The notes under the pieces: model-generated
The model's input: the letters and a program-made list of their open reading frames with translations, nothing else
What the model was told of the DNA's origin: nothing
Databases searched by the model: none
Assembly (NCBI GenBank): GCA_001805965.1
Contig: MHHG01000057.1
Location: 85,975-149,974, forward strand
DNA: 64,000 bases
Direction: 5' to 3'
Source: Omnitrophica WOR_2 bacterium RIFOXYA2_FULL_38_17
Lineage (GTDB): Bacteria; Omnitrophota; Gorgyraeia; Zapsychrales; Zapsychraceae
Translations under genes and position numbers: made by a program
Part shown: piece after piece, positions 22,464-59,834 of the stretch
Numbering within the stretch: the first letter of the stretch is position 1
Layout of the letters: each line of letters starts with the position of its first letter

Positions 22464-22483
22464 AAATTATTATCCAATACGGG

Positions 22484-23008
22484 TTAAGATTCCCTGTTTA
22501 AGAGCTGTTTCCACTTCCCTTGAGTTTTAAGTATCAACTCAACAACTTCCCTAATTGCGCCCTTGCCACCTTGTTTTCTTGTAACATAATCTGCGACTTT
22601 TTTTACTTCAGAAGCGGCATTTTTAACAGCAACCGCGAACCCAACTTTTTCCAACAAAGCGATGTCAGGTATATCATCCCCTACAAAACAAACTTCTTCT
22701 GAAGACACATTAAGCTCTTTAAGCATTATATTATAAGCTTCCGTCTTAGGATAAGCATCCTGAAACACTTTATCTATCTTTAAATCCGCTGCTCTTGAAG
22801 TTACAGCGCCAGCTGACCTTGCTGAAATAATAGCCGTTTTGATCCCTGCCCTTCTGATCAATGCAACACCATACCCATCCTGGACATCAAAGAACTTCAA
22901 TTCATTGCCGCTATGGTCCAAAACGATCTTCCCGTTAGTCAAAACACCATCTACATCCATTGCCAAAACTTTAATTTTCTTTATCTTGCCTTTCAATTTA
23001 TCTGTCAT
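22484..23008 (-). CDS. kdsC: KDO 8-phosphate phosphatase (HAD-IIIA)
   Basis: HAD motifs (LAMDVDGVLT; GDDIPD). 174 aa. kdsD-kdsC-lptA-lptB synteny. Confidence 0.85.
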   Translation of the reverse strand: MTDKLKGKIKKIKVLAMDVDGVLTNGKIVLDHSGNELKFFDVQDGYGVALIRRAGIKTAIISARSAGAVTSRAADLKIDKVFQDAYPKTEAYNIMLKELNVSSEEVCFVGDDIPDIALLEKVGFAVAVKNAASEVKKVADYVTRKQGGKGAIREVVELILKTQGKWKQLLNRES

Positions 23009-23964
23009 ACCAAACCAGCCTTTAAAAGGTCTTGAACATCCAGCAATCCAACCAATTTACCTTTATTGTCTACAACCGGAAGCTCATCAATCTTTTTCTC
23101 TTGCAGGAGCCTTAAAGCTTCCTGTGCTAACCTGTCTTTTGATATAGTCGTTGGATTTTTTGTCATAACATCCTTCACTTTCCTATCAAGCAGATGGTTG
23201 TCAGTTTCAAGTTGCCTTCTAAGATCCCCGTCAGTAAAGATCCCGACAAATTTTCCTCTTTTATTTAAAACACAGGCTGACCCGCATCTAGCCTTTGTAA
23301 TGGCCAGAAGAACTTTTTTTACCGGGGCATCTTCTTCAATTGTTGCAAACCTAACACCTTTTCTCATGATATCTTCAACTTTTAGCAACAGCATTCTGCC
23401 CAAAGATCCTCCTGGATGATAAAAAGCAAAATCTTCCCGTCTAAAACCTTTTTTAACTATCAAGCAAGCGGCTAAAGCATCTCCCATAGCAAGAGTTGCT
23501 GTCGTTGAGGCCATAGGGGCCAGTTCAAGAGGGCACCCTTCTTTCTTAACAGAAACATCCAGATCAATGTCGCTGAACTTCGCTAAAGTTGATTTTGGAT
23601 TGCCGGTAATTGCAATTATTTTGGAGCCTATTTTCCTCATCAACGGCAGTAATTTCTTTGTTTCATCAGTTTCGCCGCTATAAGATATAATGATCAAAAT
23701 ATCATTTCTGGTCACCTGTCCTAGATCTCCATGGAACGCCTCAGCACAGTGCATCCAAATACTTGGGGTTCCTGTTGAGGACAATGTTGCGGCAATTTTC
23801 CTTCCAATAATACCTGTTTTCCCCATTCCCGCTACGATAACCCTGCCCTTGCATTTAGATATAAGCTCTACTGCTTTTTCAAATTTACTATTGATCCTCG
23901 ATGCCAGGCTCTTTATCGCCTCTGCTTCAATTCTTATTACCTCTTTTGCTTCTTTTAAAGACAT
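23005..23964 (-). CDS. kdsD: Arabinose-5-phosphate isomerase (SIS + tandem CBS domains)
   Basis: SIS domain (GRVIVAGMGKTG) plus a C-terminal CBS pair. 319 aa. Confidence 0.85.
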   Translation of the reverse strand: MSLKEAKEVIRIEAEAIKSLASRINSKFEKAVELISKCKGRVIVAGMGKTGIIGRKIAATLSSTGTPSIWMHCAEAFHGDLGQVTRNDILIIISYSGETDETKKLLPLMRKIGSKIIAITGNPKSTLAKFSDIDLDVSVKKEGCPLELAPMASTTATLAMGDALAACLIVKKGFRREDFAFYHPGGSLGRMLLLKVEDIMRKGVRFATIEEDAPVKKVLLAITKARCGSACVLNKRGKFVGIFTDGDLRRQLETDNHLLDRKVKDVMTKNPTTISKDRLAQEALRLLQEKKIDELPVVDNKGKLVGLLDVQDLLKAGLV

Positions 23965-23973
23965 TCTTTTCCC

Positions 23974-24810
23974 TCAGCTAATTTTATCTTTGATTATTTT
24001 GTCAATTGATCTCATCTCAACCAACATTTTCTCAAGCTTACTGAGCTTCAGTGAATTGGGACCATCAGACAATGCTTTTTCAGGGTCATGATGAACTTCC
24101 ATAAAGATCGAATCACATCCTGCCGCCAGAGCACATCTAGATAAAAGCGGGACATATTCACTGTTGCCCCCTGAACAATCACCCATACCACCCGGTTGCT
24201 GAACGCTATGAGTCGCATCAAAAACTATCGGATATCCAAACCTGGACATAATATCTAATGAGCGAAAATCACTAACCAGGTTATTATATCCAAAACTAAC
24301 TCCACGTTCAGTAAGAAGAATCTTCTTATTACCCGTGGACTCGATCTTGATTATTATATTTTTCATGTCCCCTGGCGCAAGGAACTGTCCTTTTTTAACA
24401 TTAACTACTTTTTCTGATCTGCCGGCAGCAACAATAAGGTCTGTTTGCCTGCATAGAAATGCAGGTATCTGCAAAACATCTAAGACATCATATGCTCGGT
24501 CAATTTCTTCTACTGAATGGACATCGCTCAAAACAGGAACACCTATTTTTTCTTTGATCTCTTTAAGAATATCAAGGCCCTTATCGATCCCTAATCCCCG
24601 AAATGATTTTATAGACGTCCTATTTGCCTTGTCATAACTAGCTTTAAAAATAAAAGGTATGTGCTGCTTAACACATATTTTTTTAATTGAACCTGCCAGA
24701 GCTATCGTCTTCTTCCTGTCCTCAATGACGCACGGACCGGCAATCAGTACAAACGGCTTCCCTCCCCCGACCATTACGTTACCGATTTTTATGACTTTTG
24801 TCTTTATCAT
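23974..24810 (-). CDS. kdsA: 2-dehydro-3-deoxyphosphooctonate aldolase (KDO8P synthase)
   Basis: DAHP/KDO8P synthase fold. 278 aa. Clustered with kdsB, kdsC and kdsD. Confidence 0.85.
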   Translation of the reverse strand: MIKTKVIKIGNVMVGGGKPFVLIAGPCVIEDRKKTIALAGSIKKICVKQHIPFIFKASYDKANRTSIKSFRGLGIDKGLDILKEIKEKIGVPVLSDVHSVEEIDRAYDVLDVLQIPAFLCRQTDLIVAAGRSEKVVNVKKGQFLAPGDMKNIIIKIESTGNKKILLTERGVSFGYNNLVSDFRSLDIMSRFGYPIVFDATHSVQQPGGMGDCSGGNSEYVPLLSRCALAAGCDSIFMEVHHDPEKALSDGPNSLKLSKLEKMLVEMRSIDKIIKDKIS

Positions 24811-24825
24811 GAATAAACCCCTTGC

Positions 24826-25548
24826 TTAACTAAGCAATAATTTTTTAACCTTTTCTAAATCTTTTTTTGTATCAACACCAACCGTTTCAACATCAGTAAG
24901 TATTGTTTTGATCTTATACCCTGCTTCCAATGCCCTTAGCTGCTCCAAACATTCTGAAGCTTCAAGATTAGACTTTGGCAGGTCCTTAAACTCAAGTAAA
25001 AAATGTTTTCTATAAGCATAAATGCCTAAATGCTTATAGCATTTTGCTCCAAGGCCGTCTCTATCATACGGGATCGTGGACCTAGAAAAATACAGCGCAT
25101 TATTTGAGCTATCAATAACAACCTTAACAATATTTGGATCAGAAAGATCCTGCTCTTTATCAATAACCTTAATAACAGTAGCCATTGATGAAGAGCTATC
25201 TTTATCAAGTGCCTCGATCAAACTATCAATAACCTCAGGCTGTATCATTGGTTCATCGCCCTGAATGTTAACAACAATATCACATTCTTCTTTACTTATC
25301 GCTTCTGATATCCTGTCAGTTCCAGATTGATGATCAACAGATGTCATAACCGCCCGGGCACCAAAGCCCCTTGCCACCTTTAAAACTTTTTCATTATCGC
25401 AGGCAATAATAACATCATCCAATTTAGCGCTTTTCTTAACCTGTTCCCAAACAAGCTGTATCATTGGCTTGCCTAATATTTCGGCTAATACTTTCCCTTC
25501 AAATCTTGTAGAGTTCAATCTGGCCGGAATAACACCTATTGCCTTCAT
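24826..25548 (-). CDS. kdsB: 3-deoxy-manno-octulosonate cytidylyltransferase (CMP-KDO synthetase)
   Basis: N-terminal MKAIGVIPARLNSTRFEGK nucleotidyltransferase motif. 240 aa. Confidence 0.85.
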   Translation of the reverse strand: MKAIGVIPARLNSTRFEGKVLAEILGKPMIQLVWEQVKKSAKLDDVIIACDNEKVLKVARGFGARAVMTSVDHQSGTDRISEAISKEECDIVVNIQGDEPMIQPEVIDSLIEALDKDSSSSMATVIKVIDKEQDLSDPNIVKVVIDSSNNALYFSRSTIPYDRDGLGAKCYKHLGIYAYRKHFLLEFKDLPKSNLEASECLEQLRALEAGYKIKTILTDVETVGVDTKKDLEKVKKLLLS

Positions 25549-25563
25549 ATTTATTATTGCCCT

Positions 25564-26586
25564 TTACTTTATTGCTTCCATAAGCTCTTCTTTAGTTACA
25601 GCAACTGCTCCCATCTTTCCAACAACAATTCCTGCTGCAATATTTGAAAGCTCTGCAGCCTGCCTTTTTGTAGCATTAGACGCCAGGCAAAGTGTGAATA
25701 CAGAAATGACAGCATCACCTGCTCCAGTAACATCAAAGACTTCTTGGGCCTTTGTGCTGATAGAATAAGGCTTCTTCTTTCCCTTCTCAAACAAGCGCAT
25801 TCCTCTTTCACCAAGGGTTATCAACAAAGACTCTAAATCCAAAAATTCAAGAAGTTTTTCACCGGCCTTATCAATATCGCTATCCTTTTCAAGCTTATCA
25901 ATATTTATACCGAGGGAACTTCCCCGTTCATGCGTTATCTTTATATTTCTGATCGCATTCTCAGCCTCGCTTTTATTCGGGGTAATAGCAGTTACTTTTT
26001 TATAATAACCAAAATTCTCGACCTTAGGGTCAACAGTAATTATTTTGTTCTTCGCTAACGCTAAGGAACAAAGGCTGTCAATTACTTTAGGAGTAATCAA
26101 CCCTTTACCGTAATCAGAAATAATTATTGCATCATAATTATCTATTCTTTTTTCAATAAAATTTAAAATTTTATTGAAAATTGATCTATCTTTTGACTCT
26201 TTTATATTCTCTCTATCAATTCTAACAATTTGCTGATGTTGTGCAATTATCCTGGTTTTTGTAATAGTTGGGATATTCTTATCAAGAAATACCCCGTTAA
26301 TATCAATATTCTTTCTTTTTAATTCTCGCTTTAATAGCTTTCCATCAAAATCATTACCAATTCTTCCTACCTGAGTTACATTGGCACCCAAAGAACTAAG
26401 ATTTTGCGAAACATTAGCAGCTCCACCTGTTGTATAAAAAGATTTCTCTTCAAGTACTATTGGAACAGGAGCTTCCGGTGAAATCCTAGTTACAGTTCCT
26501 TGAATATATCTGTCAAGGATAATATCCCCAACAACAAGTATGTTTTTTTTATTAAATCTCGATATTATTTTTTTATATATGGACAT
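25564..26586 (-). CDS. hldE: D-glycero-beta-D-manno-heptose 7-phosphate kinase (HldE/RfaE domain I only; PfkB family)
   Basis: PfkB ribokinase-family motifs (GGAANVS; DVTGAGDAVISVF). 340 aa, without the C-terminal adenylyltransferase domain. Confidence 0.75.
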   Translation of the reverse strand: MSIYKKIISRFNKKNILVVGDIILDRYIQGTVTRISPEAPVPIVLEEKSFYTTGGAANVSQNLSSLGANVTQVGRIGNDFDGKLLKRELKRKNIDINGVFLDKNIPTITKTRIIAQHQQIVRIDRENIKESKDRSIFNKILNFIEKRIDNYDAIIISDYGKGLITPKVIDSLCSLALAKNKIITVDPKVENFGYYKKVTAITPNKSEAENAIRNIKITHERGSSLGINIDKLEKDSDIDKAGEKLLEFLDLESLLITLGERGMRLFEKGKKKPYSISTKAQEVFDVTGAGDAVISVFTLCLASNATKRQAAELSNIAAGIVVGKMGAVAVTKEELMEAIK

Positions 26587-26679
26587 TTCTGCAGAAACAA
26601 AACAATAGTTATACTAATAGTTTATATTTATATTATTGGATAAACATGCTCCTGTAGCTCAAAACGAAGGCTGATTCTA

Positions 26680-27750
26680 TCACAGTTTAAATATAGAGTC
26701 AACTGCTTCTAAAACTTGCGGTATTTTAATAATTTCCAGGTATTGTTGGTCACATTCATCGGCTTTTTGAAAGTTAATACCCATCTGCCCTGCAGCATTA
26801 TAAGGGACGCTAACAACAACAGAATTTGCGGATAATGGCCTCCAACACTCTGGATTGATCCCTGGCTCATTTCTTGTAAAAATTGAAACAACTGGCACAC
26901 CAAGAGCTGCAGCAATATGAACAGGGCCCGAATCGTTAGAAACAAGCAAACCGCATCTATTTAGCAAGCTAACTAATTGCCCCACAGTAGTAAAACCTGT
27001 TGCATCAATAATACTCCCTCTTACTAAAGACACAATTTTTTCAGAGATATCCTTAATGCGCGCATCTCCAACAATAACAATTTTACACTTATATCTTTTG
27101 ATAAGCTCCTCAATAAGGCCAGCAAAATACTTATACGGCCACTGTTTTGATGAATCACTTGCACCGGGATGAATCGCTATTATTATATCTTTTTTGAGCA
27201 ATCCTTTACTTTTTAAAAAAGATCCTGCCCATTTTTCAGAAGATTCACTTAGTGAAACTTGCATTTCAAATTTTTCACTATCAATACCTGAAAAATCCAT
27301 ATCTAAGGCTTTTAAAACATCAACACAATACTGGCTTTCATGTTTATTGCCTAAAAACCTCTCATCTTCCAGTGGGTCTGTAAGCAAGAATCCGAATTTT
27401 TTGTTCTTGTACCCTAGCCTGACAGGGATTCCCGCTAAAAAACATGTCAGATTGGCCCTTCTTTTAGTATGGTATACAATTGCCAAATCAAATTTTCTTT
27501 TACAAAGCTCTCTTACAAGCTTAAGATAACCAAAAAGCCCTTTATTTAAACCTTTTCTATCATCAATGATCACTTCATCAATATTTTCATTGTTAATTAT
27601 CAGTTCTTTGGTTTGCGGAGCAACAAGCATTGAAATACTTGAATCAGGCCAGAAATCCTTTAAAAGCTTTATAGCAGGTGTTGTCAAAATGACATCACCT
27701 ATTCTATCTGTTCGAACGATCAATATTTTATTAAATTTTCCTGAAGGCAC
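26680..27750 (-). CDS. GT9-family glycosyltransferase (LPS heptosyltransferase)
   Basis: The GT9 N-terminus ILIVRTDRIGDVILTTPA and the C-terminal VSNDSGPVHIAAALGVPVVSIF motif. Confidence 0.8.
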   Translation of the reverse strand: MPSGKFNKILIVRTDRIGDVILTTPAIKLLKDFWPDSSISMLVAPQTKELIINNENIDEVIIDDRKGLNKGLFGYLKLVRELCKRKFDLAIVYHTKRRANLTCFLAGIPVRLGYKNKKFGFLLTDPLEDERFLGNKHESQYCVDVLKALDMDFSGIDSEKFEMQVSLSESSEKWAGSFLKSKGLLKKDIIIAIHPGASDSSKQWPYKYFAGLIEELIKRYKCKIVIVGDARIKDISEKIVSLVRGSIIDATGFTTVGQLVSLLNRCGLLVSNDSGPVHIAAALGVPVVSIFTRNEPGINPECWRPLSANSVVVSVPYNAAGQMGINFQKADECDQQYLEIIKIPQVLEAVDSIFKL

Positions 27751-28691
27751 TTAATAACATCCTCACTTGAAATACCCATCATACAATTATGTTCAGTTTT
27801 TAATTTAGAATTATTACATTTCTCACAACTTCTGTTATTCCTAAGCGAATAACCATTTTTACCCCAAGGGCCATACTTTTCGACTTGTGTCGGGCCAAAT
27901 AAAGCTAACACTGGAATATCCATATAGCTCGCTAAATGCATAGGAGCACTGTCATTGACAACAGCAAATCGACAATGTAATAGCAATTCGGCAAGCTGAA
28001 CAAGATTTGTCCTCCCGCATAAATTGACCAAATCATGTTCCATAATTTTTGCAATCTCTCGAGCGGCCTCTCTATCCTTATGGTCTCCCACAAAAACGAC
28101 CTTCATATTGCAGTTATTCACTACATGATCTGCTACCTTGGCAAATCCTTCATTGCTCCACCTTTTTGAATCACTTGCCGAAGACGGGGCAACTACAACA
28201 TAATCGTCATCTCCTATTTCATCATACCTAAGATCCACAACACAACTTTTATCCTCATCAGAAATAAACAAAGACTTCTTCGGAGCCTCAACAGGTTCAA
28301 ATTCATACACACTTGATAAACACTTCAAATGCTTGTCTTTCATATGCATACCATCTGATCTTGTTTTAAATATCGAAGTATGGTATTTAGGCGATATTAA
28401 AACCGGCAAAGCTGTATTTCTTAGGTCGATTAAAAGGTCAAAACGCTGCTTGATCAATTCCAATACCCAAGCACCTTGTTTAAGAATTGAATCCTTTTTA
28501 TTATAAACATATATTTTTTTAAATCTTGGATTAGCACATATTACAGATTCGGCTCTTGGGCCAACAACAACAGATATCTCTGCTTCGGGAAAATCTCTTA
28601 TTAGAATATCTATAGTTGGAAAAGTTAACACAACATCTCCAATGTTCGTCAAAGAGACGACTAATATTTTTTTAATTATTTCTTTTTTCAT
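27720..28691 (-). CDS. GT9-family glycosyltransferase (LPS heptosyltransferase)
   Basis: ILVVSLTNIGDVVLTFP and NDSAPMHLASYMDIPVLALFGPT motifs. Confidence 0.8.
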   Translation of the reverse strand: MKKEIIKKILVVSLTNIGDVVLTFPTIDILIRDFPEAEISVVVGPRAESVICANPRFKKIYVYNKKDSILKQGAWVLELIKQRFDLLIDLRNTALPVLISPKYHTSIFKTRSDGMHMKDKHLKCLSSVYEFEPVEAPKKSLFISDEDKSCVVDLRYDEIGDDDYVVVAPSSASDSKRWSNEGFAKVADHVVNNCNMKVVFVGDHKDREAAREIAKIMEHDLVNLCGRTNLVQLAELLLHCRFAVVNDSAPMHLASYMDIPVLALFGPTQVEKYGPWGKNGYSLRNNRSCEKCNNSKLKTEHNCMMGISSEDVIKCLQENLIKY

Positions 28692-28718
28692 TATTTATTA
28701 ACTATATAAAATATCTGA

Positions 28719-29756
28719 TTATTTGCCTTTATCGCTGATTATCTTTACTGCAATTTTAAAAACATCATCAGCTGTTATTGCTTTCATGCAAACATTATCA
28801 TCACAATCCAGCTTATAACAAGGCTGCCGGTTACACTCAATATCTTTTTGAAGGATAACTGCTTTACCTTTACCCTTTGGACCTGTTATTTCGGAACGAG
28901 TAGGCCCAAATATCGCAATAGTATCGGTATTTACACTGTTAGCAATATGCAGAGGCCCAGAATCAGCAGATATCAAGAGCTCAGCCAAACTCATTAAAGA
29001 AATCACCTGTATCAATGTAGTCTTACCAACAAGCACGATCGGTTTTTCTTTTAACTGTTCTACAATGCTTTCAACCAACACAATGTCTGTTGGTGCTCCT
29101 GAGATTATAACTTTAATGCCTTTTTGTTTATATTCTCCAATGAGCTTTTCTATCAGCTCAACAAAATTTTCCTTTGGCCATCGTTTAAGGTCCCAGTTCC
29201 CGCCGCAATTAACAATGATCAATCTATCATTATCTTCAACGCAATTATTCCTAAGAATTGTCATTACGCTTTGTGTAACCTCATTTTTCGGAACTAGAAC
29301 AGTTCTCCTTTCATTCACCTTCACCCCAAACGATTCAATCACATTAAGATAATAATCGCGCCTATGAACATCATTCACTTCTATCCAATCAACTTTATGC
29401 GTTAAAAAAGCTCCTCTTTTCTTTGTGTCATAGCCAATTCTGTTTGGGATCCCTGCAAAATAAACAAACAATGCCCTGGTTAATGATCTGTGCAGAAGAA
29501 ACGCAGCATCAAATTTCTTTTTCCTTAATTCAAGGATCAATTTAATTTTGGCAAAGATACCATTATGAACATTTCCTTCGTCACAAATTATGATCTCATC
29601 CAAGCATTCAATACACTCAAGAACCTCTTTAACCCGAAGAGGTGCCATACAGCTTATTGTAGCTTCAGGATAAGCTTGTTTAAGCGCTTTGAATATTGGC
29701 GATGAGAAGATTACATCCCCCACCCAATTAACATTAACCACTAATATTTTTTTCAT
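28719..29756 (-). CDS. GT9-family glycosyltransferase (LPS heptosyltransferase)
   Basis: ILVVNVNWVGDVIFSSP and SADSGPLHIANSVNTDTIAIFGPT motifs. Confidence 0.8.
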   Translation of the reverse strand: MKKILVVNVNWVGDVIFSSPIFKALKQAYPEATISCMAPLRVKEVLECIECLDEIIICDEGNVHNGIFAKIKLILELRKKKFDAAFLLHRSLTRALFVYFAGIPNRIGYDTKKRGAFLTHKVDWIEVNDVHRRDYYLNVIESFGVKVNERRTVLVPKNEVTQSVMTILRNNCVEDNDRLIIVNCGGNWDLKRWPKENFVELIEKLIGEYKQKGIKVIISGAPTDIVLVESIVEQLKEKPIVLVGKTTLIQVISLMSLAELLISADSGPLHIANSVNTDTIAIFGPTRSEITGPKGKGKAVILQKDIECNRQPCYKLDCDDNVCMKAITADDVFKIAVKIISDKGK

Positions 29757-30831
29757 ATACTTTTAATGTACGTTCGATCATTCTTACTGATGAATAATTT
29801 AACAATGCATATTCCCTAGCAGCTTTACCTAGATTTTGGGCAAGCTGTGCATCTTCAACCAGCCTTATAATCGCATCAGCTAAAGCCTCAACGTTTTCAG
29901 GTTCGACCAATAAGCCGGTTTTGTTATCCTCTATCAAAGATGGTATTCCTCCTATCCTGGATCCAATAACAGCCAATCCGCAGGCCTGGGCCTCCATAAC
30001 AGACAATCCCAACCCTTCCATACGCGATGGCGCGACAAAAACATCAAGAGCGCTCATACACTCAGATGGCCTGCTTAGAGTAGGATTAAAGACGACACTA
30101 TCTTGTATCAACAGCTTCTTAACTTTTTCTTTTAGCAAACCCTCAAGCTTACCCTGTCCAAAAAGAACTAATCTTACATTCGGATTTTTTTTTAGAACAT
30201 ATGGCATAGCCTCAACAAGTATATCCTGCCCCTTAACATCAGATAAACGTGCAACCATTCCAACCAAAATCCCTTCTTTCAGCCCAAACCCTTTTTTTCT
30301 TTCCATCTTAGTAGCTTGATCGACAACTTTAAACTTATCAAGATCAATACCACTCGTCACTAAAATAACTTTATCTTTTATTACTTTAAGATCATCAACT
30401 AAATGAGCAACTACTGCGTCGCTAATTGCCACTACAGAATCTCCCCAGCACGGGAAGAGCTTTCTTGAAATCCTTGGCTTAAAATACCCGTGGCAAGTTG
30501 AAACATAAGGCTTTTTTGTTATCTTCTCAAGCAAATAACCCATGACCTGCGTCACTCTTGTCTGCGCATGAATGATTTCTATTCCATTTTCCTTAATATA
30601 ATCTGCTATCTTTCTTAAATTAAAATAAATCCTGGGGCTAAGCTCTGATTTTGTGCGTATATCAACATTAAATAATAGTGCACCAACATCTCTGAAAGAA
30701 TCTTCCGCATCACCTCCGCATGAAACAATATGAACTTGATGGCCTCTTTCAACAAAGCCCTTTGTCAAAGTATGCAAATATGCTGTAATGCCTCCGGTGT
30801 TAAGATGTGTTGTTATAAATAATATTTTCAT
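29734..30831 (-). CDS. GT4-family (GT-B, RfaG/WaaG-like) glycosyltransferase
   Basis: The GT4 N-terminus MKILFITTHLNTGGITAY and the C-terminal E-X7-E region (SRMEGLGLSVMEAQACG). Confidence 0.75.
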   Translation of the reverse strand: MKILFITTHLNTGGITAYLHTLTKGFVERGHQVHIVSCGGDAEDSFRDVGALLFNVDIRTKSELSPRIYFNLRKIADYIKENGIEIIHAQTRVTQVMGYLLEKITKKPYVSTCHGYFKPRISRKLFPCWGDSVVAISDAVVAHLVDDLKVIKDKVILVTSGIDLDKFKVVDQATKMERKKGFGLKEGILVGMVARLSDVKGQDILVEAMPYVLKKNPNVRLVLFGQGKLEGLLKEKVKKLLIQDSVVFNPTLSRPSECMSALDVFVAPSRMEGLGLSVMEAQACGLAVIGSRIGGIPSLIEDNKTGLLVEPENVEALADAIIRLVEDAQLAQNLGKAAREYALLNYSSVRMIERTLKVYEKNISG

Positions 30832-30843
30832 TGATTTTTTTGC

Positions 30844-32937
30844 CTAGCTCATTAGATATTTAATCTCTTTCATGACTTCTTCCGGAGAGATATCATCAAT
30901 ACATGCATGCGACAAAATCTTACAATAACCTGAATAACACGGGGCACAATTCAGCTTTTTATCCAGGACAACATACTTCTTTGCCGGCGGAAGATGCCTT
31001 TCAGCATCGGTCGGCCCAAAAAACGCGATAAAAGGTGTACCAACTGCTGCTGCAACATGCATCGGAGCTGAATCAGGCGTAACAAAAACCTTACATTGTT
31101 TTATCAATGCTGCCAGTTGCATGATATCCGTCTTTCCCACAAAAATTGCGGGCTTTGATTTTGTCAATGACAACAATTTCTGAGCCAATTCCCTATCATG
31201 ATCCATGCCTGTAATGATCACCCGTATATTACTGGCCGTAAGAAGATCGCACAATTTTGCGATATAATCGATAGGCCAATTTTTTGTCTGCCATTTTGCG
31301 GATGCAGCAATATTAATACCTACGATATTCGTTGCGTTGCCCATCCATTCTGAATCAAAAAGTTGCCTCGCATGCTGTTTATCCTTTGCAGATAACCACA
31401 GTTCAAGATATGAATTCTCGTTATAATTAATATCAAGCTTGCTTAAGATCTGAAACTGCTGCTTTATTGCCGGGACTTCTTTTATATAGTTCTTTACAGG
31501 ATGAGATAAAAGAAACCCGTATTTCCCATTATTAAATCCATAACTTTCATTAGGAAAACTTAAGAAGCTCAATAAGTGACTAGTTCCATTATTTTGAAAA
31601 TCAATAATCTTATCGAATCTATACTTCCGTAACTTGCTAGCCAATTTTAAGAATTTAAGCGGCCCTCTGTCTTTATGCTTTTTGTCATAAACTATTAATC
31701 CATCCAAATACGGGCAATTATGAAGAATCTTGCGTGCCTCATTGCCAACCAAACAATGTATCCTTGCTTTGGGAAATTTCTTCCTTAGAGCTTTTAACGA
31801 CGGCGTAACCATAACAACATCACCAACTGAGCTCATTTTGATAACCAGAATATTCATCGACCTTAACAGCTCTTCATAAACTTCAATGGTCTTAGTTGCC
31901 ATCTGGTCAAGAGTATACTTTTCCTGCAGCTTTTTTTTTGCTTCGACAGAAAATCTTGCAGCAAGAGTTTTATCATTAAGCAATCTCAAAACAGCTTTTG
32001 CCATGGACTCTGTATCCTTAGGCATGACAAGCAATCCTGTTTTGTCATCATCAATGATATCAACAACTCCACCGACTTTTGTGGCAACAACCGGGACACC
32101 TACCGCTTGCGCTTCGATTATTACCCTTCCAAAAGACTCTTGAGTGATCGTTGCAAGGACAAGAACATCAACCTTTGATAGAAGCTCAGGCACATCACTT
32201 CTATTCCCCAAAAACTCAACATTATCCTTTATGCCAAGCCTTTTGACCAGAACCTCTAATTCTCTTTTGTATGATTCTTTTTTAGCCGGGACATCCCCGA
32301 TAATCTGTATCTTTAAATAAGGGTTTGAACGCACAACCGTAGCCATCGCCTTTAAGAAATAAATGTGACCTTTCAGAGGGGTTATCCTTCCGACTATAGC
32401 AACAACTTTATCCGGACTCCCCTTCGCAAATTCTTTTTGCACTTTGAATTTATCAAGGTCAACACTTCTGGGAATGCACCTTATACTTCTCGACTGTACC
32501 TTATAATCATCTATCATATGCCGCCCAATTACCTCACTTGGCACAATAATCAATTTTGCCCAACCCATAACCTGGCTGAAAAATCGGTTCTTATAATAAC
32601 CATGGCAAGTAGTGATAAAAGAGGCGTTTGTTTTGCGCGTAGCAAAATAGGCTATCCACGCCGGAACTCTCGAACGCGCATGAACAATATCAATCTTTTC
32701 TTTGCGGATTATTTTCCGAAGAGACTTGATGGAATTATAAATTGTTAACAGGGATTTTTTATGAACAGGCAATACATAGTGCTTGGCACCTGCTGATTCG
32801 AGCTGTTTTACCAGTTCGCCTCCGTTAGAAACAACTACTGAATAGTGACCCTTCTCAACTAAATATTTTGCAAGGTCTACAGTACCAGTTTCAACTCCCC
32901 CAACATTCAACTCTGGAAGTATTTGCAATATTTTCAT
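30844..32937 (-). CDS. Two-domain glycosyltransferase: N-terminal GT4 fused to C-terminal GT9 heptosyltransferase-like domain
   Basis: The N-terminal half (~1-360) is paralogous to the upstream GT4 (MKILQILPELNVGGVETGT...; EGFGRVIIEAQAVG). The C-terminal half carries GT9 signatures (VIKMSSVGDVVMVTP; DSAPMHVAAAVGTPFIAFFGPT). Confidence 0.75.
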   Translation of the reverse strand: MKILQILPELNVGGVETGTVDLAKYLVEKGHYSVVVSNGGELVKQLESAGAKHYVLPVHKKSLLTIYNSIKSLRKIIRKEKIDIVHARSRVPAWIAYFATRKTNASFITTCHGYYKNRFFSQVMGWAKLIIVPSEVIGRHMIDDYKVQSRSIRCIPRSVDLDKFKVQKEFAKGSPDKVVAIVGRITPLKGHIYFLKAMATVVRSNPYLKIQIIGDVPAKKESYKRELEVLVKRLGIKDNVEFLGNRSDVPELLSKVDVLVLATITQESFGRVIIEAQAVGVPVVATKVGGVVDIIDDDKTGLLVMPKDTESMAKAVLRLLNDKTLAARFSVEAKKKLQEKYTLDQMATKTIEVYEELLRSMNILVIKMSSVGDVVMVTPSLKALRKKFPKARIHCLVGNEARKILHNCPYLDGLIVYDKKHKDRGPLKFLKLASKLRKYRFDKIIDFQNNGTSHLLSFLSFPNESYGFNNGKYGFLLSHPVKNYIKEVPAIKQQFQILSKLDINYNENSYLELWLSAKDKQHARQLFDSEWMGNATNIVGINIAASAKWQTKNWPIDYIAKLCDLLTASNIRVIITGMDHDRELAQKLLSLTKSKPAIFVGKTDIMQLAALIKQCKVFVTPDSAPMHVAAAVGTPFIAFFGPTDAERHLPPAKKYVVLDKKLNCAPCYSGYCKILSHACIDDISPEEVMKEIKYLMS

Positions 32938-33011: not shown

Positions 33012-35015
33012 CTAAACAATTTCTCTTACAGCTTCAAGAATGATCTTATTATCGTTAATTGCTCTTGTTTGAAGCTTGTTCTTTGCAACTCCAAGAATCG
33101 AGTTACCAATATTTTTAACATCCGTTGACAATATATAGCCCTGCTCATTAAGGATTTCGACGATCAATTTGTGTTTATTGTATATCTTTAGGAATTTTGC
33201 CCTTGTTTCAGGCAAGAATACAATAGTCTTCTTTCCTGATGAGGCTGCCTCGCTAATCATTGAAATGCTGTCCCCGGAAACAACAACAATATCAGATAAT
33301 CCCAGAATGCCACCCACAGCCTCAGGAACATTATCCTGGTTCGCTATTATTAATAAAGGACAGACAATATTTTTCTTAAGTTCCCTGTACAGCATTTGTT
33401 CTATTCTGGAAGGAGTTCTTCTTGACGTAGTAACCAAAAGTGAGGCTTTTAGGTCCTTTGCGACATTTTTAATCTGGTTTATAAGTACTCTTATCTGGTT
33501 CTCGCTAATAAAAACATTGTTTGAATCACCACCCACGAACAAACCGATCTTTACACGCACATTTTCTTTCAGATGAGAGTATCTTTTTTCTAGGAGCGCA
33601 GATTGCTCAGCAAGATATTCTTTTGTAATTAAGTTGGGAGCCGCTTTTGTAATAGCCATTCTTGCTTTTAGATCTTTCTTCTCGGGCTCATCATGCTGTG
33701 GCAAAACAACCAGATCAAAACGGTTAAATCTTAAAAGGCCTGGTTTTAGGACTACAATGCTCTTTGCATTATGGTCCTTAGATACTAAACTATTTAACCC
33801 TGCGATAGAAGATCCACAAGAAATAAAAAAGTCTGCTTTCACTGACATGATCTCATCAAAAGATTCTTGCGTAAGGAACCAATTTAAAAAGTCCAATCTG
33901 CCCTGGTAAATAAACGAATGCAAGAAAACCGTCAGCAGGGAAAACAGCCTGGCCGGGTATTTGCCCTTAAAATTTACACTGATTATCTGAGAGGTGGCTT
34001 CAACATCCCTTTCAGCAAGAGCTTTCTGCACCATCTTGGCTACGGTTTCCGACTGCCTTAAATGGCCTGTTTTTCCGTCGAATAAAATTGCGATATTTGT
34101 CTTATTAGAATACTTCCAGATCTTGTAGAACCACATATATTCACTGGGATACTTGCATATAAATCCTTCCATCTTCTTTGTGACTTTACTCAAACTCTCA
34201 AAGACATCCTTTTCAGTATCACCCGTATCAACAAGATCAAGGGGTTTATCAATGATCATTTTGTGATACGCACCTTTTTGCCTGATAACAACTGCAAAGC
34301 ATATTGGGACACCCAGCTTCAGACCTAAACGAATTGCACCAACGGACATTGAAGCAGGCCTACCAAAAAATGGAACCAGCATACCATCACGGCCGCCTTG
34401 ATCTACGACCATCCCGACAACTTCATTTTTCTTTATGCTCTTAACAAAATCTCTTGTCCCAGCTCCCCGGGATAAAACAACTGAGCCGCCACATGATCTA
34501 TACGTGTTAAGAAGATCGTCGAGTTTTGAATACTTGGGCTGAGGCTTCACCATGACCTTATAAGGGAATTGAAGCATTGCACATGAAAGGCTCGCCATCT
34601 CCCAGCTGCCAAAATGCATTGCCAGCAATATCAGCCCTTTTCCTTCTTTAAGAGAATTTTCAATATTCTCTTTTCCCTCAACCGAGACATATTTTTCAAA
34701 CCTCTTGCTATTCATCAAAGGCATCCTAAACAATTCAATAAAATTCTGACCATAGTTCAAAAATAGCTCTTTCGTTATATTCCTTATCTCATAAGGAGAT
34801 TTGCTATCTGCAAAGGCCATCTTTAGGTTCGCATATGCCTGTCCCTTGTGCTTTGCATCAAAGTAATATGCAACTATCCCGATAAACTTGCCTATTAATA
34901 AACTTAGCCACAACGGCAAGATCCTCACAATAAACCCGAATATCTTAAGACTGTAATAAATTATCGATTCTTTCAAAAATCTTTTCCTTTCCTTCGATGA
35001 ATTGAAGGCCAACAT
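33012..35015 (-). CDS. lpxL: Fusion of lipid A late acyltransferase (LpxL/HtrB family) with a C-terminal ELM1/DUF1022-like GT-B domain
   Basis: N-terminus has a TM helix plus the LpxL-like HFGSWE catalytic motif and a VDQ motif. C-terminal ~350 aa has ELM1-family features (IGLFVGGDS...LVTTSRRTP...VSGDSISMISEA). The 5' end overlaps lpxK by 71 bp. Confidence 0.65.
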   Translation of the reverse strand: MLAFNSSKERKRFLKESIIYYSLKIFGFIVRILPLWLSLLIGKFIGIVAYYFDAKHKGQAYANLKMAFADSKSPYEIRNITKELFLNYGQNFIELFRMPLMNSKRFEKYVSVEGKENIENSLKEGKGLILLAMHFGSWEMASLSCAMLQFPYKVMVKPQPKYSKLDDLLNTYRSCGGSVVLSRGAGTRDFVKSIKKNEVVGMVVDQGGRDGMLVPFFGRPASMSVGAIRLGLKLGVPICFAVVIRQKGAYHKMIIDKPLDLVDTGDTEKDVFESLSKVTKKMEGFICKYPSEYMWFYKIWKYSNKTNIAILFDGKTGHLRQSETVAKMVQKALAERDVEATSQIISVNFKGKYPARLFSLLTVFLHSFIYQGRLDFLNWFLTQESFDEIMSVKADFFISCGSSIAGLNSLVSKDHNAKSIVVLKPGLLRFNRFDLVVLPQHDEPEKKDLKARMAITKAAPNLITKEYLAEQSALLEKRYSHLKENVRVKIGLFVGGDSNNVFISENQIRVLINQIKNVAKDLKASLLVTTSRRTPSRIEQMLYRELKKNIVCPLLIIANQDNVPEAVGGILGLSDIVVVSGDSISMISEAASSGKKTIVFLPETRAKFLKIYNKHKLIVEILNEQGYILSTDVKNIGNSILGVAKNKLQTRAINDNKIILEAVREIV

Positions 35016-36018
35016 CTAAAGATAACACTGTTAGGCTTTCATCAAACAGATCCAACATCCCTTCAATTTTCACCGCATCTTTTTGTGTTGTAACTATTAT
35101 ATTGGTTCTTGAGCAGCTGTCCTGATCCTGAATTCTGGCAATATCCCTTTTGTCATACACATGATGATCAATAAAATTATCGCTTTTAATAATATTGGCC
35201 CCTAAAATCTCAAGGATCTCAACAAAGGATCTCGGATCTCCTATTCCACAGAAAGTAATAATTCTCTTTTCATTAATAGAGACAGTTTCTTTTTTTTGGC
35301 CTGTTCTAAGGTCAGTAAATCCTACCGGAGAATGTATAGCTTTTACTATATCAGCCTTAGGATTAATTCCTGCAAGTTTATCAATAATGCCATTTACATT
35401 CTTTGCGCCCAAGTCTGCCTTTGTGATAACGAACATATCCGCTCTTTTTAAAGAGCCTAACTTCTCCCGGAGAAATCCTCTGGGAATCAAAAATCCATTT
35501 CCCCATGGGTTCATAGCATCAATGCATACAATATTTAAATCTCTGTGCAACCGCCATCTTTGAAATCCGTCATCAAGGATAAAAACATCTGCATCATCAG
35601 TTTTCAAATATCTTTTGGCATTCTCAAACCTGTTTGCCCCGACAAGGACAGGGACATCTTCCAGTGCTCTTTCAAGCATTCTAGCTTCATCTTTAGCTTG
35701 TGATTCGTCATTTGAAATACTGTCTTTATATCCTCGGTTTAAAATAACAGGCTTTTTTTTATTTGCTCTCAGTTCTCTTGCAATAACCTCAACCAAAGGG
35801 GTTTTACCGACGCCACCTAAAGTAATATTGCCGACACTAATGACTTTCCTATTTAAGCGATTAACTTTTAAAATGCCTTTTTCATAAAAAGCACAGACCG
35901 TGCTTGCCAAAAATCCATATACGATCGAGACCACCCATAAGAAACATTTCAATATCCGGACGAAGAAGCCATCAACCTTGTCCGTAATAACTAATAAAAA
36001 ATATTCTTTAATGCTCAC
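34945..36018 (-). CDS. lpxK: Tetraacyldisaccharide 4'-kinase
   Basis: P-loop GNITLGGVGKTP. 357 aa. waaA-lpxK coupling with a 4 bp overlap. Confidence 0.85.
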   Translation of the reverse strand: MSIKEYFLLVITDKVDGFFVRILKCFLWVVSIVYGFLASTVCAFYEKGILKVNRLNRKVISVGNITLGGVGKTPLVEVIARELRANKKKPVILNRGYKDSISNDESQAKDEARMLERALEDVPVLVGANRFENAKRYLKTDDADVFILDDGFQRWRLHRDLNIVCIDAMNPWGNGFLIPRGFLREKLGSLKRADMFVITKADLGAKNVNGIIDKLAGINPKADIVKAIHSPVGFTDLRTGQKKETVSINEKRIITFCGIGDPRSFVEILEILGANIIKSDNFIDHHVYDKRDIARIQDQDSCSRTNIIVTTQKDAVKIEGMLDLFDESLTVLSLDVGLQFIEGKEKIFERIDNLLQS

Positions 36019-37304
36019 TTTAGCTCCACCATATTTGATCCTATCAAAATATCTCTTATGAATTTAAAAGTCCTATCTGTTGCACCTTGTGATTTTTTTA
36101 CAGCTTTTTGCGCCCTTAAACCAATTTCATATGATTTCTGGTCATCCTTTAGCAGCTCTTTCATCACTTCAAACATTTCATTTTTATCATTCACCTGCAG
36201 CAGTGCTTTTTCACTCAATAAAAACCTGACCGCATCCTTAAAATTTTCAGTCCTGGGCCCAATAATTGTAGGCTTACCATAACCTGCCGGCTCTATCATA
36301 TTCTGGCCTCCGCCAACAGCAAAAGATTTGCCAACAAAGACTATCTTTGATAACACATAAAACTTGCGCAAGTATCCGATCTTGTCAACGACAAGGACTT
36401 TATCTTTTTCTTTTGCCATGTCAAAATTATTCGAGAACAATACAGCTTTCAATCCATTATTTTCAATGACTCTAACAACCTCTTCTGAACGTTCAATATG
36501 TCTTGGCACTATTACCAGCCGTAAATCCTTAAACTCGCGTAAAAGTTTCTTATAAACGTCCACAATCAATTCTTCTTCTGTTGGATGAGTGCTTCCAGCA
36601 ACAAGCAATTTATCTTCTTTTTTATACCCACACAAGCAAGAAACATCTTCAATATTACCATCAAAGCCATCAAATTTTAAATTACCAACCATATGCACTT
36701 TATCCTTTCCAGCACCTAAAGAGATAATTCTAGAACAGTCCATTTCACTCTGCATACAGAAAACTTTAACACAAGAAAGCACATTCCTTGTCAAAAAATT
36801 CATTCTCTTATATCCCCTTAAAGCCTTGTCAGATATCCTGCCATTAACCTGAACGATAGGAACACCTGAATCAGAAAGGCCCGTATAAAGATTAGGCCAA
36901 AGTTCGGTTTCAGCTGCAATATATAATTTTGGCCTAATTTGAGAGATGTATTTCTTGACGATTAAACTGAAATCTAATGGAGCATAAATAACTTCAATAT
37001 CTTTTCCCAGCTTCTCTTTTGCCAGGTCATTGCCAGTTTTGGTAACCGTTGAGAATATTATCTTATAATCTTTAAAATTTATCTTTATTCTTGCGACAAG
37101 TTCTAAAACCGTTAATACTTCCCCTACACTGACTGCATGAATCCATATACATTTACGCTTATCATTCCTCAGCGAACCTTTAAGCTCTTTGGGAAAAACC
37201 CCAAACCTCATCCAAAACCCACAATGCCATTTGCGTTTTAAAAGAAGATACGGAAAATAAATAAGGGCGAATATAAGAAAAATTATGTCATAAATAATTA
37301 TCAT
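36015..37304 (-). CDS. waaA: 3-deoxy-D-manno-octulosonic acid (KDO) transferase
   Basis: N-terminal membrane anchor, then the WIHAVSVGE motif typical of KdtA/WaaA. 429 aa. Confidence 0.85.
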   Translation of the reverse strand: MIIIYDIIFLIFALIYFPYLLLKRKWHCGFWMRFGVFPKELKGSLRNDKRKCIWIHAVSVGEVLTVLELVARIKINFKDYKIIFSTVTKTGNDLAKEKLGKDIEVIYAPLDFSLIVKKYISQIRPKLYIAAETELWPNLYTGLSDSGVPIVQVNGRISDKALRGYKRMNFLTRNVLSCVKVFCMQSEMDCSRIISLGAGKDKVHMVGNLKFDGFDGNIEDVSCLCGYKKEDKLLVAGSTHPTEEELIVDVYKKLLREFKDLRLVIVPRHIERSEEVVRVIENNGLKAVLFSNNFDMAKEKDKVLVVDKIGYLRKFYVLSKIVFVGKSFAVGGGQNMIEPAGYGKPTIIGPRTENFKDAVRFLLSEKALLQVNDKNEMFEVMKELLKDDQKSYEIGLRAQKAVKKSQGATDRTFKFIRDILIGSNMVELK

Positions 37305-58787: not shown

Positions 58788-58850
58788 AATTGCGCGATAA
58801 TAGCATACTGATTGACTTTTGTCGAGGTCTTTGTTATTGTGTTTACCATG

Positions 58851-59795: not shown

Positions 59796-59834
59796 ACAAA
59801 GCTTTCTTTTTAATATTTTCATTCAATACTGATC

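Follow-up and report, generated by a model that had tools for sequence, protein, structure and literature searches.

The genome of Omnitrophica WOR_2 bacterium RIFOXYA2_FULL_38_17 carries an ORF (33012-35015) that encodes an LpxL-type half followed by an ELM1 half and is interrupted by neither a stop nor a frameshift. The ORF and its neighbors in the LPS gene string are listed below, with positions in the window, i.e., the whole 64-kb stretch of DNA that was analyzed.

36015..37304, (-): waaA (Kdo transferase), at the head of the LPS gene string (PF04413, E 6e-56)
34945..36018, (-): lpxK (tetraacyldisaccharide 4'-kinase), which overlaps the 5' end of the fusion (PF02606, E 8e-78; TIGR00682, above cutoff)
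33012..35015, (-): fusion ORF of 667 codons, beginning at the first ATG (35015) and ending at the stop (33012)
34981..34995, (-): purine-rich stretch GAAGGAAAGGAAAAG within the 3' end of lpxK, read from the sequence and putatively RBS-like
34974..34976, (-): TTG, the likely start codon, equivalent to codon 14 in the long ORF (public 654-aa protein and homologue N-termini)
33012-34976, (-): likely CDS of the fusion, 654 aa
31864..32937, (-): GnaT/LpsB-like GT4 domain, occupying aa 1-358 of the GT4-GT9 fusion encoded downstream
30844..31860, (-): GT9 heptosyltransferase domain belonging to this GT4-GT9 fusion (PF01075, E 2.8e-38; TIGR02195, 139.1 bits vs 134.6)
20936..30831, (-): other co-directional LPS genes, namely, GT4, three GT9s, PfkB kinase, kdsB, kdsA, kdsD, kdsC, lptC/lptA-like, and lptB

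The original prediction described a single 667-aa ORF joining two domains, located between lpxK/waaA and the core glycosyltransferases. Both points were borne out: PF03279 and PF06258 matched the same ORF, and lpxK and waaA are upstream while glycosyltransferases are downstream. The waaA product matched NF004388 with an E value of 6e-94, yet remained under the model cutoff (315 vs 438 bits). The GT4 domain encoded downstream of the fusion was 35% identical to A. baumannii GnaT over its full length (E 2.6e-77) and contains an EX7E motif at E267-E275; its best matches in 7.3 Gb of records were LpsB loci. A UDP-GlcNAc dehydrogenase gene (gna) was not seen within the 64-kb window. In Acinetobacter, lpxL adjoins gnaT.

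The true start of the fusion is likely to be the TTG at 34976 because the identical protein is publicly annotated with 654 aa, most homologue N-termini read 'M-K/x-E-S' and align with fusion codons 14-17, and the purine-rich stretch CGAAGGAAAGGAAAAGATTT precedes this codon in the sequence. The overlap with lpxK of 71 nt that was initially proposed holds for the longest ORF, but becomes about 32 nt with the likely start. The overlap was also taken to suggest tight translational coupling; however, short overlaps fit a compact operon and by themselves do not demonstrate coupling. Promoter and terminator scans gave the same counts as shuffled sequence and, therefore, were uninformative on operon structure.

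Domains and conserved residues of the fusion protein

The features of the acyltransferase half are as follows.

34113..34964, (-): LpxL-type late acyltransferase domain, PF03279, aa 18-301
34860..34958, (-): hydrophobic helices at the N-terminus, aa 20-52, predicted membrane anchor (hydropathy and AF2)
34599..34616, (-): HFGSWE, the HX4E catalytic dyad, H134 and E139 (invariance among homologues)

A Pfam search matched this half to PF03279 (Lip_A_acyltrans) with an E value of 3.2e-47 and 161.6 bits (cutoff 22.3), covering profile positions 15-294 of 295. Hydropathy peaked at 2.03 at aa 32 (Kyte-Doolittle, 19-residue window), and the AF2 model placed helices at H7-32 and H35-52; the half combines this N-terminal membrane-anchoring helix with an LpxM/PatA-like fold. 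H134 and E139 were both invariant across 58 fusion homologues. These results agree with the expectation of an LpxL-type acyltransferase with a TM anchor and a catalytic dyad. All 17 NCBIfam equivalog matches were under cutoff (the best, NF006270, reached 147.5 bits vs 248); these scores support superfamily membership only and not a specific assignment to LpxL, LpxM, or LpxP. Identity to A. baumannii LpxL was only about 25%. The fusion differs from LpxL/LpxM/LpxP acyltransferases (A. baumannii LpxM structure 5knk) by an entire glycosyltransferase at its C-terminus.

The junction and the ELM1 half comprise the following features.

34062..34148, (-): conserved junction without a linker, PSEYMWFYKIWKYSNKTNIAILFDGKTGH (junction alignment and AF2)
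33015..34103, (-): ELM1/GtrOC1 (KdoT-like) GT-B glycosyltransferase domain, aa 305-667
34062..34079, (-): DGKTGH loop, in which D313 and H318 align with KdoT D8 and H13 (invariant in alignments A1-A4)
33831..33968, (-): helical segment, aa 350-395, ~45 aa, hydrophobic/amphipathic, mostly inserted in comparison with KdoT and the Tistrella ELM1 protein
33690..33701, (-): PQHD (H441-D442), aligned to KdoT H109-D110 (P, H, and D invariant in the diverse alignment A3)
33414..33425, (-): SRRT (S531-T534), aligned to KdoT S178-T181, with R533 equivalent to KdoT R180
33246..33278, (-): SGDSISMISEA, a conserved donor-domain motif with the KdoT counterpart TEDSVSMVFEA

The C-terminal half was predicted to be of the ELM1/DUF1022 GT-B type, and the Pfam search is in accordance: PF06258 (Mito_fiss_Elm1) matched aa 317-632 with an E value of 3.7e-43 and 148.2 bits (cutoff 27). 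This half adopts a GT-B fold of two Rossmann-like domains. In the AF2 model, which is confident for the whole two-domain fusion (pTM 0.85), the acyltransferase fold stops at ~aa 300 and the first Rossmann strand spans aa 305-312. All of the motifs originally highlighted were located (HFGSWE at aa 134-139, GG at 495-496, LVTTSRRTP at 527-535, and SGDSISMISEA at 580-590). S531-R532-R533-T534 was invariant in alignments A1, A3, and A4. Alignment A3 contained 18 diverse sequences and was too diverse for the genome scan, which was run with a 6-sequence alignment. The aa 350-395 segment corresponds to gaps in KdoT alignments and is modeled by AF2 as helices of lower pLDDT; it is possibly a membrane- or lipid-binding element.

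WaaA ranked below UDP/TDP-sugar GT-B enzymes and UDP-GlcNAc 2-epimerase, which were the best structural matches of the ELM1 half. As checked at the suggestion of the original prediction, the half is neither a GT9 nor an LpxB protein, nor is it WaaA: PF01075 (GT9) did not match the fusion at E <= 0.01, whereas four neighboring proteins match it strongly, and the C-terminal half had no Pfam match to PF02684 (LpxB, GT19) or PF04413 (WaaA, GT30). A role as a substitute for LpxB or WaaA was considered and rejected, both canonical genes being inside the window.

Relationship to KdoT and distribution of the fusion

To our knowledge, no role was known for the bacterial ELM1-like family until 2024-2025, and WaaA was earlier credited with all inner-core Kdo residues. 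A. baumannii A1S_2903/GtrOC1 was predicted to be a glycosyltransferase by Kenyon and Hall (2014), was tied genetically to the third Kdo in 2024 (PMC10936431), and was demonstrated in vitro in December 2025 to be KdoT, the CMP-Kdo:Kdo2-lipid IVA third-Kdo transferase (PMC12856342). The premise that bacterial DUF1022/ELM1 proteins lack an established function has been outdated by these studies. The further proposal that the same Kdo2-lipid A intermediate could be the substrate of a second transferase agrees with what is now known of the family from KdoT. The A. baumannii outer-core loci encode additional Mito_fiss_Elm1 glycosyltransferases (GtrOC14, 19, and 22), and PF06258 members are functionally non-uniform.

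KdoT itself matched PF06258 with 203.5 bits. It was 27% identical to the ELM1 domain of the fusion over 292 aa (E 9e-13, BLASTP), and its comparison with the profile of this domain gave a probability of 99.75% (E 1.9e-27, 264 columns, hhalign). The two share the GT-B fold, DSxSM and other motifs, and a GnaT/LpsB-like GT4 partner, GnaT/LpsB being the partner enzyme of KdoT. KdoT D8, H13, H109-D110, and SRRT all have counterparts that are invariant in the fusion. However, conservation at D8, H13, H109, and D110 is weak functional evidence because the single mutants D8A, H13A, H109A, and D110A all retained activity; R180 is the sole KdoT residue with demonstrated importance for activity, as assessed by mutagenesis, and H13 is reported to be lost outside Acinetobacter (PMC12856342). 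KdoT is an unfused peripheral protein of 296 aa whose gene lies in the outer-core locus beside ilvE, whereas the fusion domain (362 aa) is covalently joined to LpxL, has the ~45-aa hydrophobic insertion and a C-terminal extension, and has its coding sequence between lpxK and the core glycosyltransferases. KdoT and the Tistrella ELM1 protein, the latter of which has no equivalent of KdoT H13, are at about the same distance from the fusion domain. The standalone Tistrella ELM1 gene was considered as contextual support and rejected, its neighbors being unrelated and its setting non-LPS. Arabidopsis ELM1 (ELONGATED MITOCHONDRIA1), the namesake of PF06258, is a eukaryotic mitochondrial-fission factor (PMC10936431). 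It shares only the Pfam family with the fusion and has no LPS link, and nothing in the fusion points to a comparable role.

Identical architecture and gene order (waaA, lpxK, lpxL-ELM1, GT4-GT9, GT4, GT9...) were found in 70 of the 80 Omnitrophota species genomes sampled. The fusion is kept across this phylum down to ~30% identity with a highly conserved junction, and NCBI names these proteins 'ELM1/GtrOC1 family putative glycosyltransferase'. Some Omnitrophota lineages, such as CP070837.1, carry an LpxK-ELM1 fusion. The possibility that the LpxL-ELM1 fusion is confined to Omnitrophota was considered and rejected when the protein WP_226069883.1 of Methylophaga pinxianii (plasmid pWTT2411), annotated with the same family name, was found. 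Its LpxL(N)-ELM1(C) order is that of Omnitrophota, and its gene is directly followed by genes for a GnaT-like GT4 and a GT9. However, it has a linker of ~75 aa, whereas the Omnitrophota fusion is almost without one, and its ELM1 half shares 35% identity with KdoT and only 22% with the Omnitrophota domain. The Methylophaga LpxL-KdoT fusion arose independently of the Omnitrophota one. It is rare, only its own cluster having been found. LpxL-WaaA fusions are common in Gammaproteobacteria; those of uncultured members (e.g., P0292, 733 aa) resemble the present fusion in carrying an N-terminal acyltransferase and a C-terminal Kdo-adding GT-B enzyme on one chain, but in them LpxL is paired with the primary Kdo transferase (GT30, PF04413) and not with an enzyme of the ELM1/KdoT type.

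Proposed function and alternatives

We consider a bifunctional LPS enzyme that combines LpxL-type acylation with KdoT-like Kdo transfer to be the best explanation of the fusion as a whole (probability of approximately 0.55). That it is a bifunctional enzyme of the LPS inner core is very probable, and the chances that CMP-Kdo is the donor of the ELM1 domain appear to be even; the best reading of the added sugar is a further Kdo or another inner-core sugar. The N-terminal hydrophobic helix would tether the protein to the cytoplasmic face of the inner membrane, and the LpxL-type domain (H134/E139) would place a secondary acyl chain on Kdo-substituted lipid IVA. The ELM1/GtrOC1 domain would most likely use CMP-Kdo to add an extra Kdo to the Kdo(2)-lipid IVA supplied by WaaA, whose gene is the second one upstream. 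The added residue may then be extended by the GnaT/LpsB-like GT4 domain that the next gene encodes, and the GT9 domains may contribute heptose. The fusion would unite two enzymes that use a common lipid substrate in one polypeptide tethered to the membrane. The analysis established the identities and folds of the domains, the conservation of the catalytic and KdoT-equivalent residues, the homology to KdoT and GnaT, the phylum-wide synteny, and the independent recurrence of the fusion; which sugar is donated, to which acceptor, in what order the reactions proceed, and whether the substrate is channeled are inferred.

The same architecture and pathway are consistent with an ELM1 domain that decorates the Kdo/lipid A region with a non-Kdo sugar, such as a hexose, a hexuronic acid, or a hexosamine supplied as a UDP-sugar or another NDP-sugar. 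The presence of several A. baumannii outer-core glycosyltransferases besides KdoT in PF06258, the low identity to KdoT, the insertion in the acceptor domain, and the precedence of UDP/TDP-sugar enzymes over WaaA among the structural matches all favor this donor. However, the sole biochemically characterized family member, KdoT, uses CMP-Kdo (PMC12856342); SRRT, the R180 equivalent, and the DGKxGH loop are retained, including the H13 that is lost in Tistrella; a GnaT-like partner is co-conserved directly downstream; and the gene lies between waaA/lpxK and the core glycosyltransferases with kds genes in the same string. We regard a non-Kdo donor as rather unlikely. An ELM1 domain that lacks catalytic activity and acts as a scaffold or regulator, in the manner of plant ELM1 recruiting a dynamin-related protein, is very improbable. 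A non-catalytic role was considered for the A. baumannii protein before its biochemistry was established (PMC10936431), but KdoT is catalytic in vitro (PMC12856342), the fold of the domain is a complete GT-B, and GG, SRRT, SxxSISMxSEA, DGKxGH, and PxHD are invariant over deep divergence.

Another possibility, which we regard as doubtful, is that the fusion is mechanistically meaningless and that its domains act independently, the stop codon between operon genes having been lost during gene compaction in small Omnitrophota genomes. The ELM1 module is joined to whatever gene is upstream (LpxL, LpxK, or GT9), neighbors in the LPS string are also fused (GT4-GT9, GT9-GT9, and LptC-LptA-like), a split lpxL|elm1 version with equal spacing exists, and KdoT functions as a free protein in A. 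baumannii (PMC12856342). On the other hand, the deep conservation of the fusion and its linkerless junction, the confident two-domain model, and the independent recurrence of the pairing in Methylophaga with a different linker argue against compaction, as does the repeated joining of the LpxL C-terminus to other Kdo-region enzymes (WaaA, GT9, and EptA/B). A sequencing or assembly error that merged two genes, or a C-terminal half that is in fact a GT9, LpxB, or WaaA homologue, is almost certainly not the explanation. Of the 80 independent species genomes, 70 had the uninterrupted ORF, as did 108 of the best 150 cluster representatives, and the C-terminal half lacks matches to the three corresponding Pfam families while canonical GT9, lpxB, and waaA genes are elsewhere in the window. 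The fused ORF in more than 100 protein clusters also rules out the two separate genes that the original prediction had named as an alternative.

A more ambitious version of the bifunctional reading, which we consider unlikely, is a machine with two active sites that physically couples the addition of an extra inner-core sugar to secondary acylation on one Kdo2-lipid IVA, or an Omnitrophota enzyme whose donor is not CMP-Kdo and that builds a novel inner core. If true, physical coupling would impose a fixed order on steps that proceed independently in Proteobacteria, and the LpxL-KdoT, LpxL-WaaA, LpxL-GT9, and LpxL-EptA/B fusions together would point to a general, previously unrecognized complex at the inner membrane in which late acyltransferases associate with Kdo-region enzymes. 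We know of no LPS structure for Omnitrophota, and an unusual inner core is predicted for this phylum.

With the KdoT-like bifunctional enzyme as the preferred reading, the locus provides independent genomic evidence from a distant uncultured phylum that a KdoT-type enzyme belongs to the Kdo2-lipid IVA stage, and it supports the view that this enzyme travels with a GnaT-type partner. Since the fusion arose at least 2 times and lpxL is the neighbor of gnaT in Acinetobacter, the KdoT-type enzyme may be functionally tied to late acylation. The non-canonical KdoT/GnaT route would reach well past Acinetobacter and Rickettsia. Literature searches covering KdoT, Mito_fiss_Elm1, and Omnitrophica LPS turned up no mention of the fusion, and one for DUF1022 was empty. 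It is a new architecture of known enzymes and an incremental advance because the underlying enzyme families were already known. PDB searches found no solved structure of the PF06258 family, and this naturally membrane-tethered form of the enzyme could aid structural work.

Domain architecture and genomic setting of the fusion protein

An uninterrupted ORF of 667 codons runs from 35015 to 33012 on the minus strand. Its N-terminal half (aa 18–301) matched PF03279 (bacterial lipid A biosynthesis acyltransferase; E 3.2e-47) and its C-terminal half (aa 317–632) matched PF06258 (Mito_fiss_Elm1; E 3.7e-43), both well over the curated Pfam cutoffs. These matches bear out the original prediction of a two-domain LpxL + ELM1/DUF1022 ORF, and the motifs it quoted were located at aa 134–139 (HFGSWE), 495–496 (GG), 527–535 (LVTTSRRTP), and 580–590 (SGDSISMISEA). 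In NCBIfam, the N-terminal half matched LpxL/LpxM/LpxP-type models only, each under its equivalog cutoff. The predicted 71-nt overlap with lpxK holds for the longest ORF. However, the real overlap is likely 32 nt, with the start codon TTG at 34976, because the public annotation of an identical protein is 654 aa, the N-termini of homologues line up from codon 14 of the long ORF onward, and a purine-rich stretch precedes this TTG. A protein with 100% identity to the fusion is encoded in the metagenome-assembled genome (MAG) 'Omnitrophica WOR_2 bacterium GWF2_38_59'.

AlphaFold2 modeled the full-length protein with confidence (pLDDT 88.5, pTM 0.85). The two domains are predicted to be joined with effectively no linker, since the modeled acyltransferase fold extends to about aa 300 and a Rossmann strand, the first, starts from aa 305. 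The junction, EYMWFYKIWKYS-xxx-IxILxDGKTGH, was highly conserved in an alignment of homologues.

Features of the window
33012–35015, minus: LpxL–ELM1 fusion
30844–32937, minus: GT4–GT9 fusion, 697 aa; GT4 half (aa 1–358) GnaT/LpsB-like, GT9 half C-terminal
21639–22463, minus: single 274-aa ORF with an LptC domain (aa 25–155) and an LptA/LptD_N domain (aa 180–259); an apparent further fusion of neighbouring LPS-transport genes
56994–61004: MsbA-like ABC exporter (minus), Gfo/Idh/MocA oxidoreductase (plus), and lpxB (plus)
15491–16282, minus: 263-aa ORF, no Pfam match
61518–62039, minus: 173-aa ORF, no Pfam match

The fusion gene is part of a co-directional string in the order xerC-like recombinase, waaA, lpxK, fusion, GT4–GT9 fusion, GT4, three GT9 genes, PfkB kinase, kdsB, kdsA, kdsD, kdsC, an lptC/lptA-like gene, and lptB. 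A canonical lpxB, the exporter, and the oxidoreductase lie at 57–61 kb, and the remaining genes are housekeeping genes. The window has both waaA and lpxB, so the ELM1 domain is a transferase in addition to WaaA and LpxB and replaces neither. A gna gene was not seen within the window. The oxidoreductase beside lpxB may be a GnnA-like enzyme, which would imply GlcN3N-type lipid A. In positions 1–58000, all ORFs of at least 150 aa are on the minus strand and the GC skew is near -0.25 across approximately 58 kb, which is consistent with one replichore with strong gene co-orientation. This otherwise strong negative skew relaxes at 56994–61004, and, apart from the oxidoreductase and lpxB, no ORF of 150 aa or more lies on the plus strand of the window.

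Relationship of the ELM1 domain to KdoT

The original prediction regarded DUF1022/ELM1 as an orphan domain, a view that is now outdated because a family member, KdoT of Acinetobacter baumannii, was shown to transfer Kdo (PMC12856342). Kenyon and Hall predicted in 2014 that GtrOC1, a Mito_fiss_Elm1 protein of the GT-B clan CL0113, is a glycosyltransferase (PMC4172580). In 2024, the deletion of A1S_2903 was found to result in a Kdo2-lipid A chemotype (PMC10936431), and in December 2025 its purified product, now called KdoT, was reported to move Kdo from CMP-Kdo to Kdo2-lipid IVA (PMC12856342). KdoT was inactive on lipid IVA, favoured a tetra-acylated substrate, needed R180 in the conserved SRRT motif, and acted upstream of the GT4 enzyme GnaT (LpsB); single mutants at D8, H13, H109, and D110 were still active (PMC12856342). 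The donors of the further A. baumannii family members GtrOC14, 19, and 22 are not known (PMC4172580).

The KdoT sequence was obtained from an A. baumannii chromosome fragment filed as a plasmid in PLSDB, in which the gene is the first after ilvE and encodes 296 aa. Its D8, H13, H109, D110, and S178-R179-R180-T181 match the published numbering exactly (PMC12856342). PLSDB 'plasmids' of 3.6–4.9 Mb (NZ_CP077849.1, NZ_CP064203.1, NZ_CP104448.1, NZ_OL790696.1, and others) are evidently complete chromosomes of A. baumannii or E. coli, which is a data-quality issue.

KdoT shared 27% identity with the ELM1 domain of the window (E 9e-13) and matched a profile of diverse Omnitrophota ELM1 domains with a probability of 99.75% (E 1.9e-27). 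Its D8, H13, H109-D110, and SRRT align to D313, H318, H441-D442, and S531–T534 of the fusion. Among 58 fusion homologues, these residues were invariant (D442 nearly so), as were H134 and E139 (the HX4E dyad), G317, G495-G496, and most of S580–E589; the invariant S531–T534 stretch reads S531-R532-R533-T534. In 18 ELM1 domains chosen for divergence (29–50% identity; aa 306 numbered as 1), D8, G12, H13, Q16, P134, H136, D137, G190-G191, T225-S226-R227-R228-T229, S278, M281, and K309 were still invariant. Compared with KdoT, the domain of the window has an additional hydrophobic helical insertion of approximately 45 aa in the acceptor half and a C-terminal extension. A Tistrella ELM1 protein from an unrelated genomic context was about as far from the window's domain as KdoT is; it has N where KdoT has H13 and SRRS where KdoT has SRRT.

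Conservation in Omnitrophota and the GnaT-like partner

A word-indexed search with the fusion yielded 380 proteins at E ≤ 1e-10. The best 120 of these all carried both Pfam domains at 55–75% identity, and the organism name, where given, was always Omnitrophota. When the ELM1 domain alone was the query, exhaustive phmmer returned 2,103 cluster representatives at E ≤ 1e-3, the best 150 of which comprised LpxL+ELM1 (108), LpxK+ELM1 (3), GT9+ELM1 (1), and ELM1-only proteins (38, approximately 14 of which appear complete). The LpxL–ELM1 fusion was retained down to approximately 30% identity.

Scanning species-representative genomes revealed relatives in at least 531 of them. The best 80 loci were all from Omnitrophota MAGs, a few with an automatic 'Planctomycetales' or 'Elulimicrobium' label, and their order was near-constant: WaaA, LpxK, LpxL–ELM1, GT4–GT9, GT4, GT9, GT9. 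The LpxL–ELM1 fusion was found in 70 of these loci, LpxK–ELM1 without lpxL nearby on that strand in six, and separate lpxL and elm1 genes in one; three were interrupted by contig ends. In the split locus, lpxL terminates with '...YMWFY*' and elm1 begins 27 nt on, a spacing equal to that of the fusions.

Many Omnitrophota carry GT9–GT9 tandem fusions downstream in the same locus (L014, L019, L022, L023, L030, L033, and others), the counterparts of which are separate genes in the window. A complete waaA-lpxK-lpxL/ELM1-GT4/GT9 locus is present in DYOU01000008.1 (L038), a MAG labelled 'Candidatus Elulimicrobium sp.', which NCBI taxonomy places in the Patescibacteria group. Since Patescibacteria generally lack LPS, either this label or the bin may be in error. 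Several further loci are labelled 'uncultured Planctomycetales'.

The GT4 domain of the gene following the fusion shared 35% identity with GnaT of A. baumannii over the full length (E 2.6e-77), versus only 24% for the other GT4 of the window. It has an EX7E motif at E267–E275, and the GT9 half of the protein passes TIGR02195 (heptosyltransferase II model). When 7.3 Gb of records, among them complete chromosomes of A. baumannii and E. coli, were searched with tblastn, the best matches of this GT4 domain were LpsB loci, with the LpsB locus as the sole strong match per Acinetobacter chromosome. Among 85 loci (the best 80 and five retrieved before), the gene after the ELM1 module was visible in 80; it was a GT4–GT9 fusion in 73 (one with the GT4 domain matched twice), and the visible part was a GT4 domain in the remaining seven. 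Since this GT4 domain matches GnaT/LpsB, KdoT-like and GnaT-like modules are neighbouring and co-conserved in Omnitrophota.

Proposed role and LpxL fusions in Proteobacteria

The present analysis established identities, folds, conserved residues, homology, synteny, and recurrent fusion; we infer the donor, acceptor, step order, and any channelling for the fusion as follows. LpxK would provide lipid IVA, to which WaaA would add Kdo. The LpxL helix would keep the fusion protein at the membrane, its GT-B domain most likely adds another Kdo, and secondary acylation would fall to its acyltransferase domain. In the following protein, the GnaT-like domain would then extend the newly added residue, and the GT9 domains would add heptose. 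The preference of KdoT for a tetra-acylated substrate fits an enzyme whose encounter with the substrate precedes late acylation or coincides with it. The ELM1 module joins whichever gene is upstream, and several adjoining LPS genes are also fused; therefore, operon compaction probably contributed to the fusion.

Both enzyme families are already known, and the public label of the fusion proteins is 'ELM1/GtrOC1 family putative glycosyltransferase'. Our literature search found no paper on the LpxL–ELM1 fusion or its conservation throughout the phylum Omnitrophota, and none on the neighbouring GnaT-like module or the independent Methylophaga fusion described below. LpxL–ELM1 is a new domain architecture built of known enzyme families. 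It offers independent evidence that KdoT-type enzymes work alongside late acylation, at the stage of Kdo2-lipid IVA, and suggests that the non-canonical KdoT/GnaT route extends far outside Proteobacteria.

Proteobacterial genes lend independent support to a link between LpxL, KdoT, and GnaT. In A. baumannii (CP035931.1, 292516–303322; L089), lpxL (lauroyl acyltransferase) immediately precedes lpsB/gnaT, with both on one strand, and kdoT lies apart from them, beside ilvE (L086). The cultured gammaproteobacterium Methylophaga pinxianii has a plasmid-borne 674-aa protein with PF03279 (261 bits) and PF06258 (207 bits) separated by a linker of approximately 75 aa. This fusion is of independent origin because its ELM1 half is nearer to KdoT (35% identity, E 5e-55) than to the Omnitrophota domain (only 22%). 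Directly after it lies a gene with 46% identity to GnaT (E 4e-118), and then come more glycosyltransferases, GT9, and O-antigen ligase.

Relatives of the Methylophaga LpxL domain in uncultured Gammaproteobacteria were N-terminal LpxL–C-terminal WaaA fusions in approximately 86 of the 120 matches listed (e.g., the 733-aa P0292). LpxL–GT9, LpxL–EptA/B (phosphoethanolamine transferase type), and tandem LpxL–LpxL proteins were rarer among the matches listed. The proteins concerned are P0279–P0390, and examples across these types are P0292, P0280, P0392, and P0274. We found no literature on these four gammaproteobacterial fusion types. Because of the WaaA, GT9, and EptA/B partners, a membrane-anchored N-terminal LpxL with an enzyme acting on the Kdo region is a recurring design.

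The M. pinxianii plasmid pWTT2411 (NZ_CP095734.1, 150333–169097; L088) carries an island devoted to synthesis of the LPS core and to remodelling of lipid A, with eptA, a two-component system, a PAP2 phosphatase, dgkA, an LTA-synthase-family protein, the LpxL–KdoT fusion, the GnaT orthologue, GT4, GT9, and O-antigen ligase.
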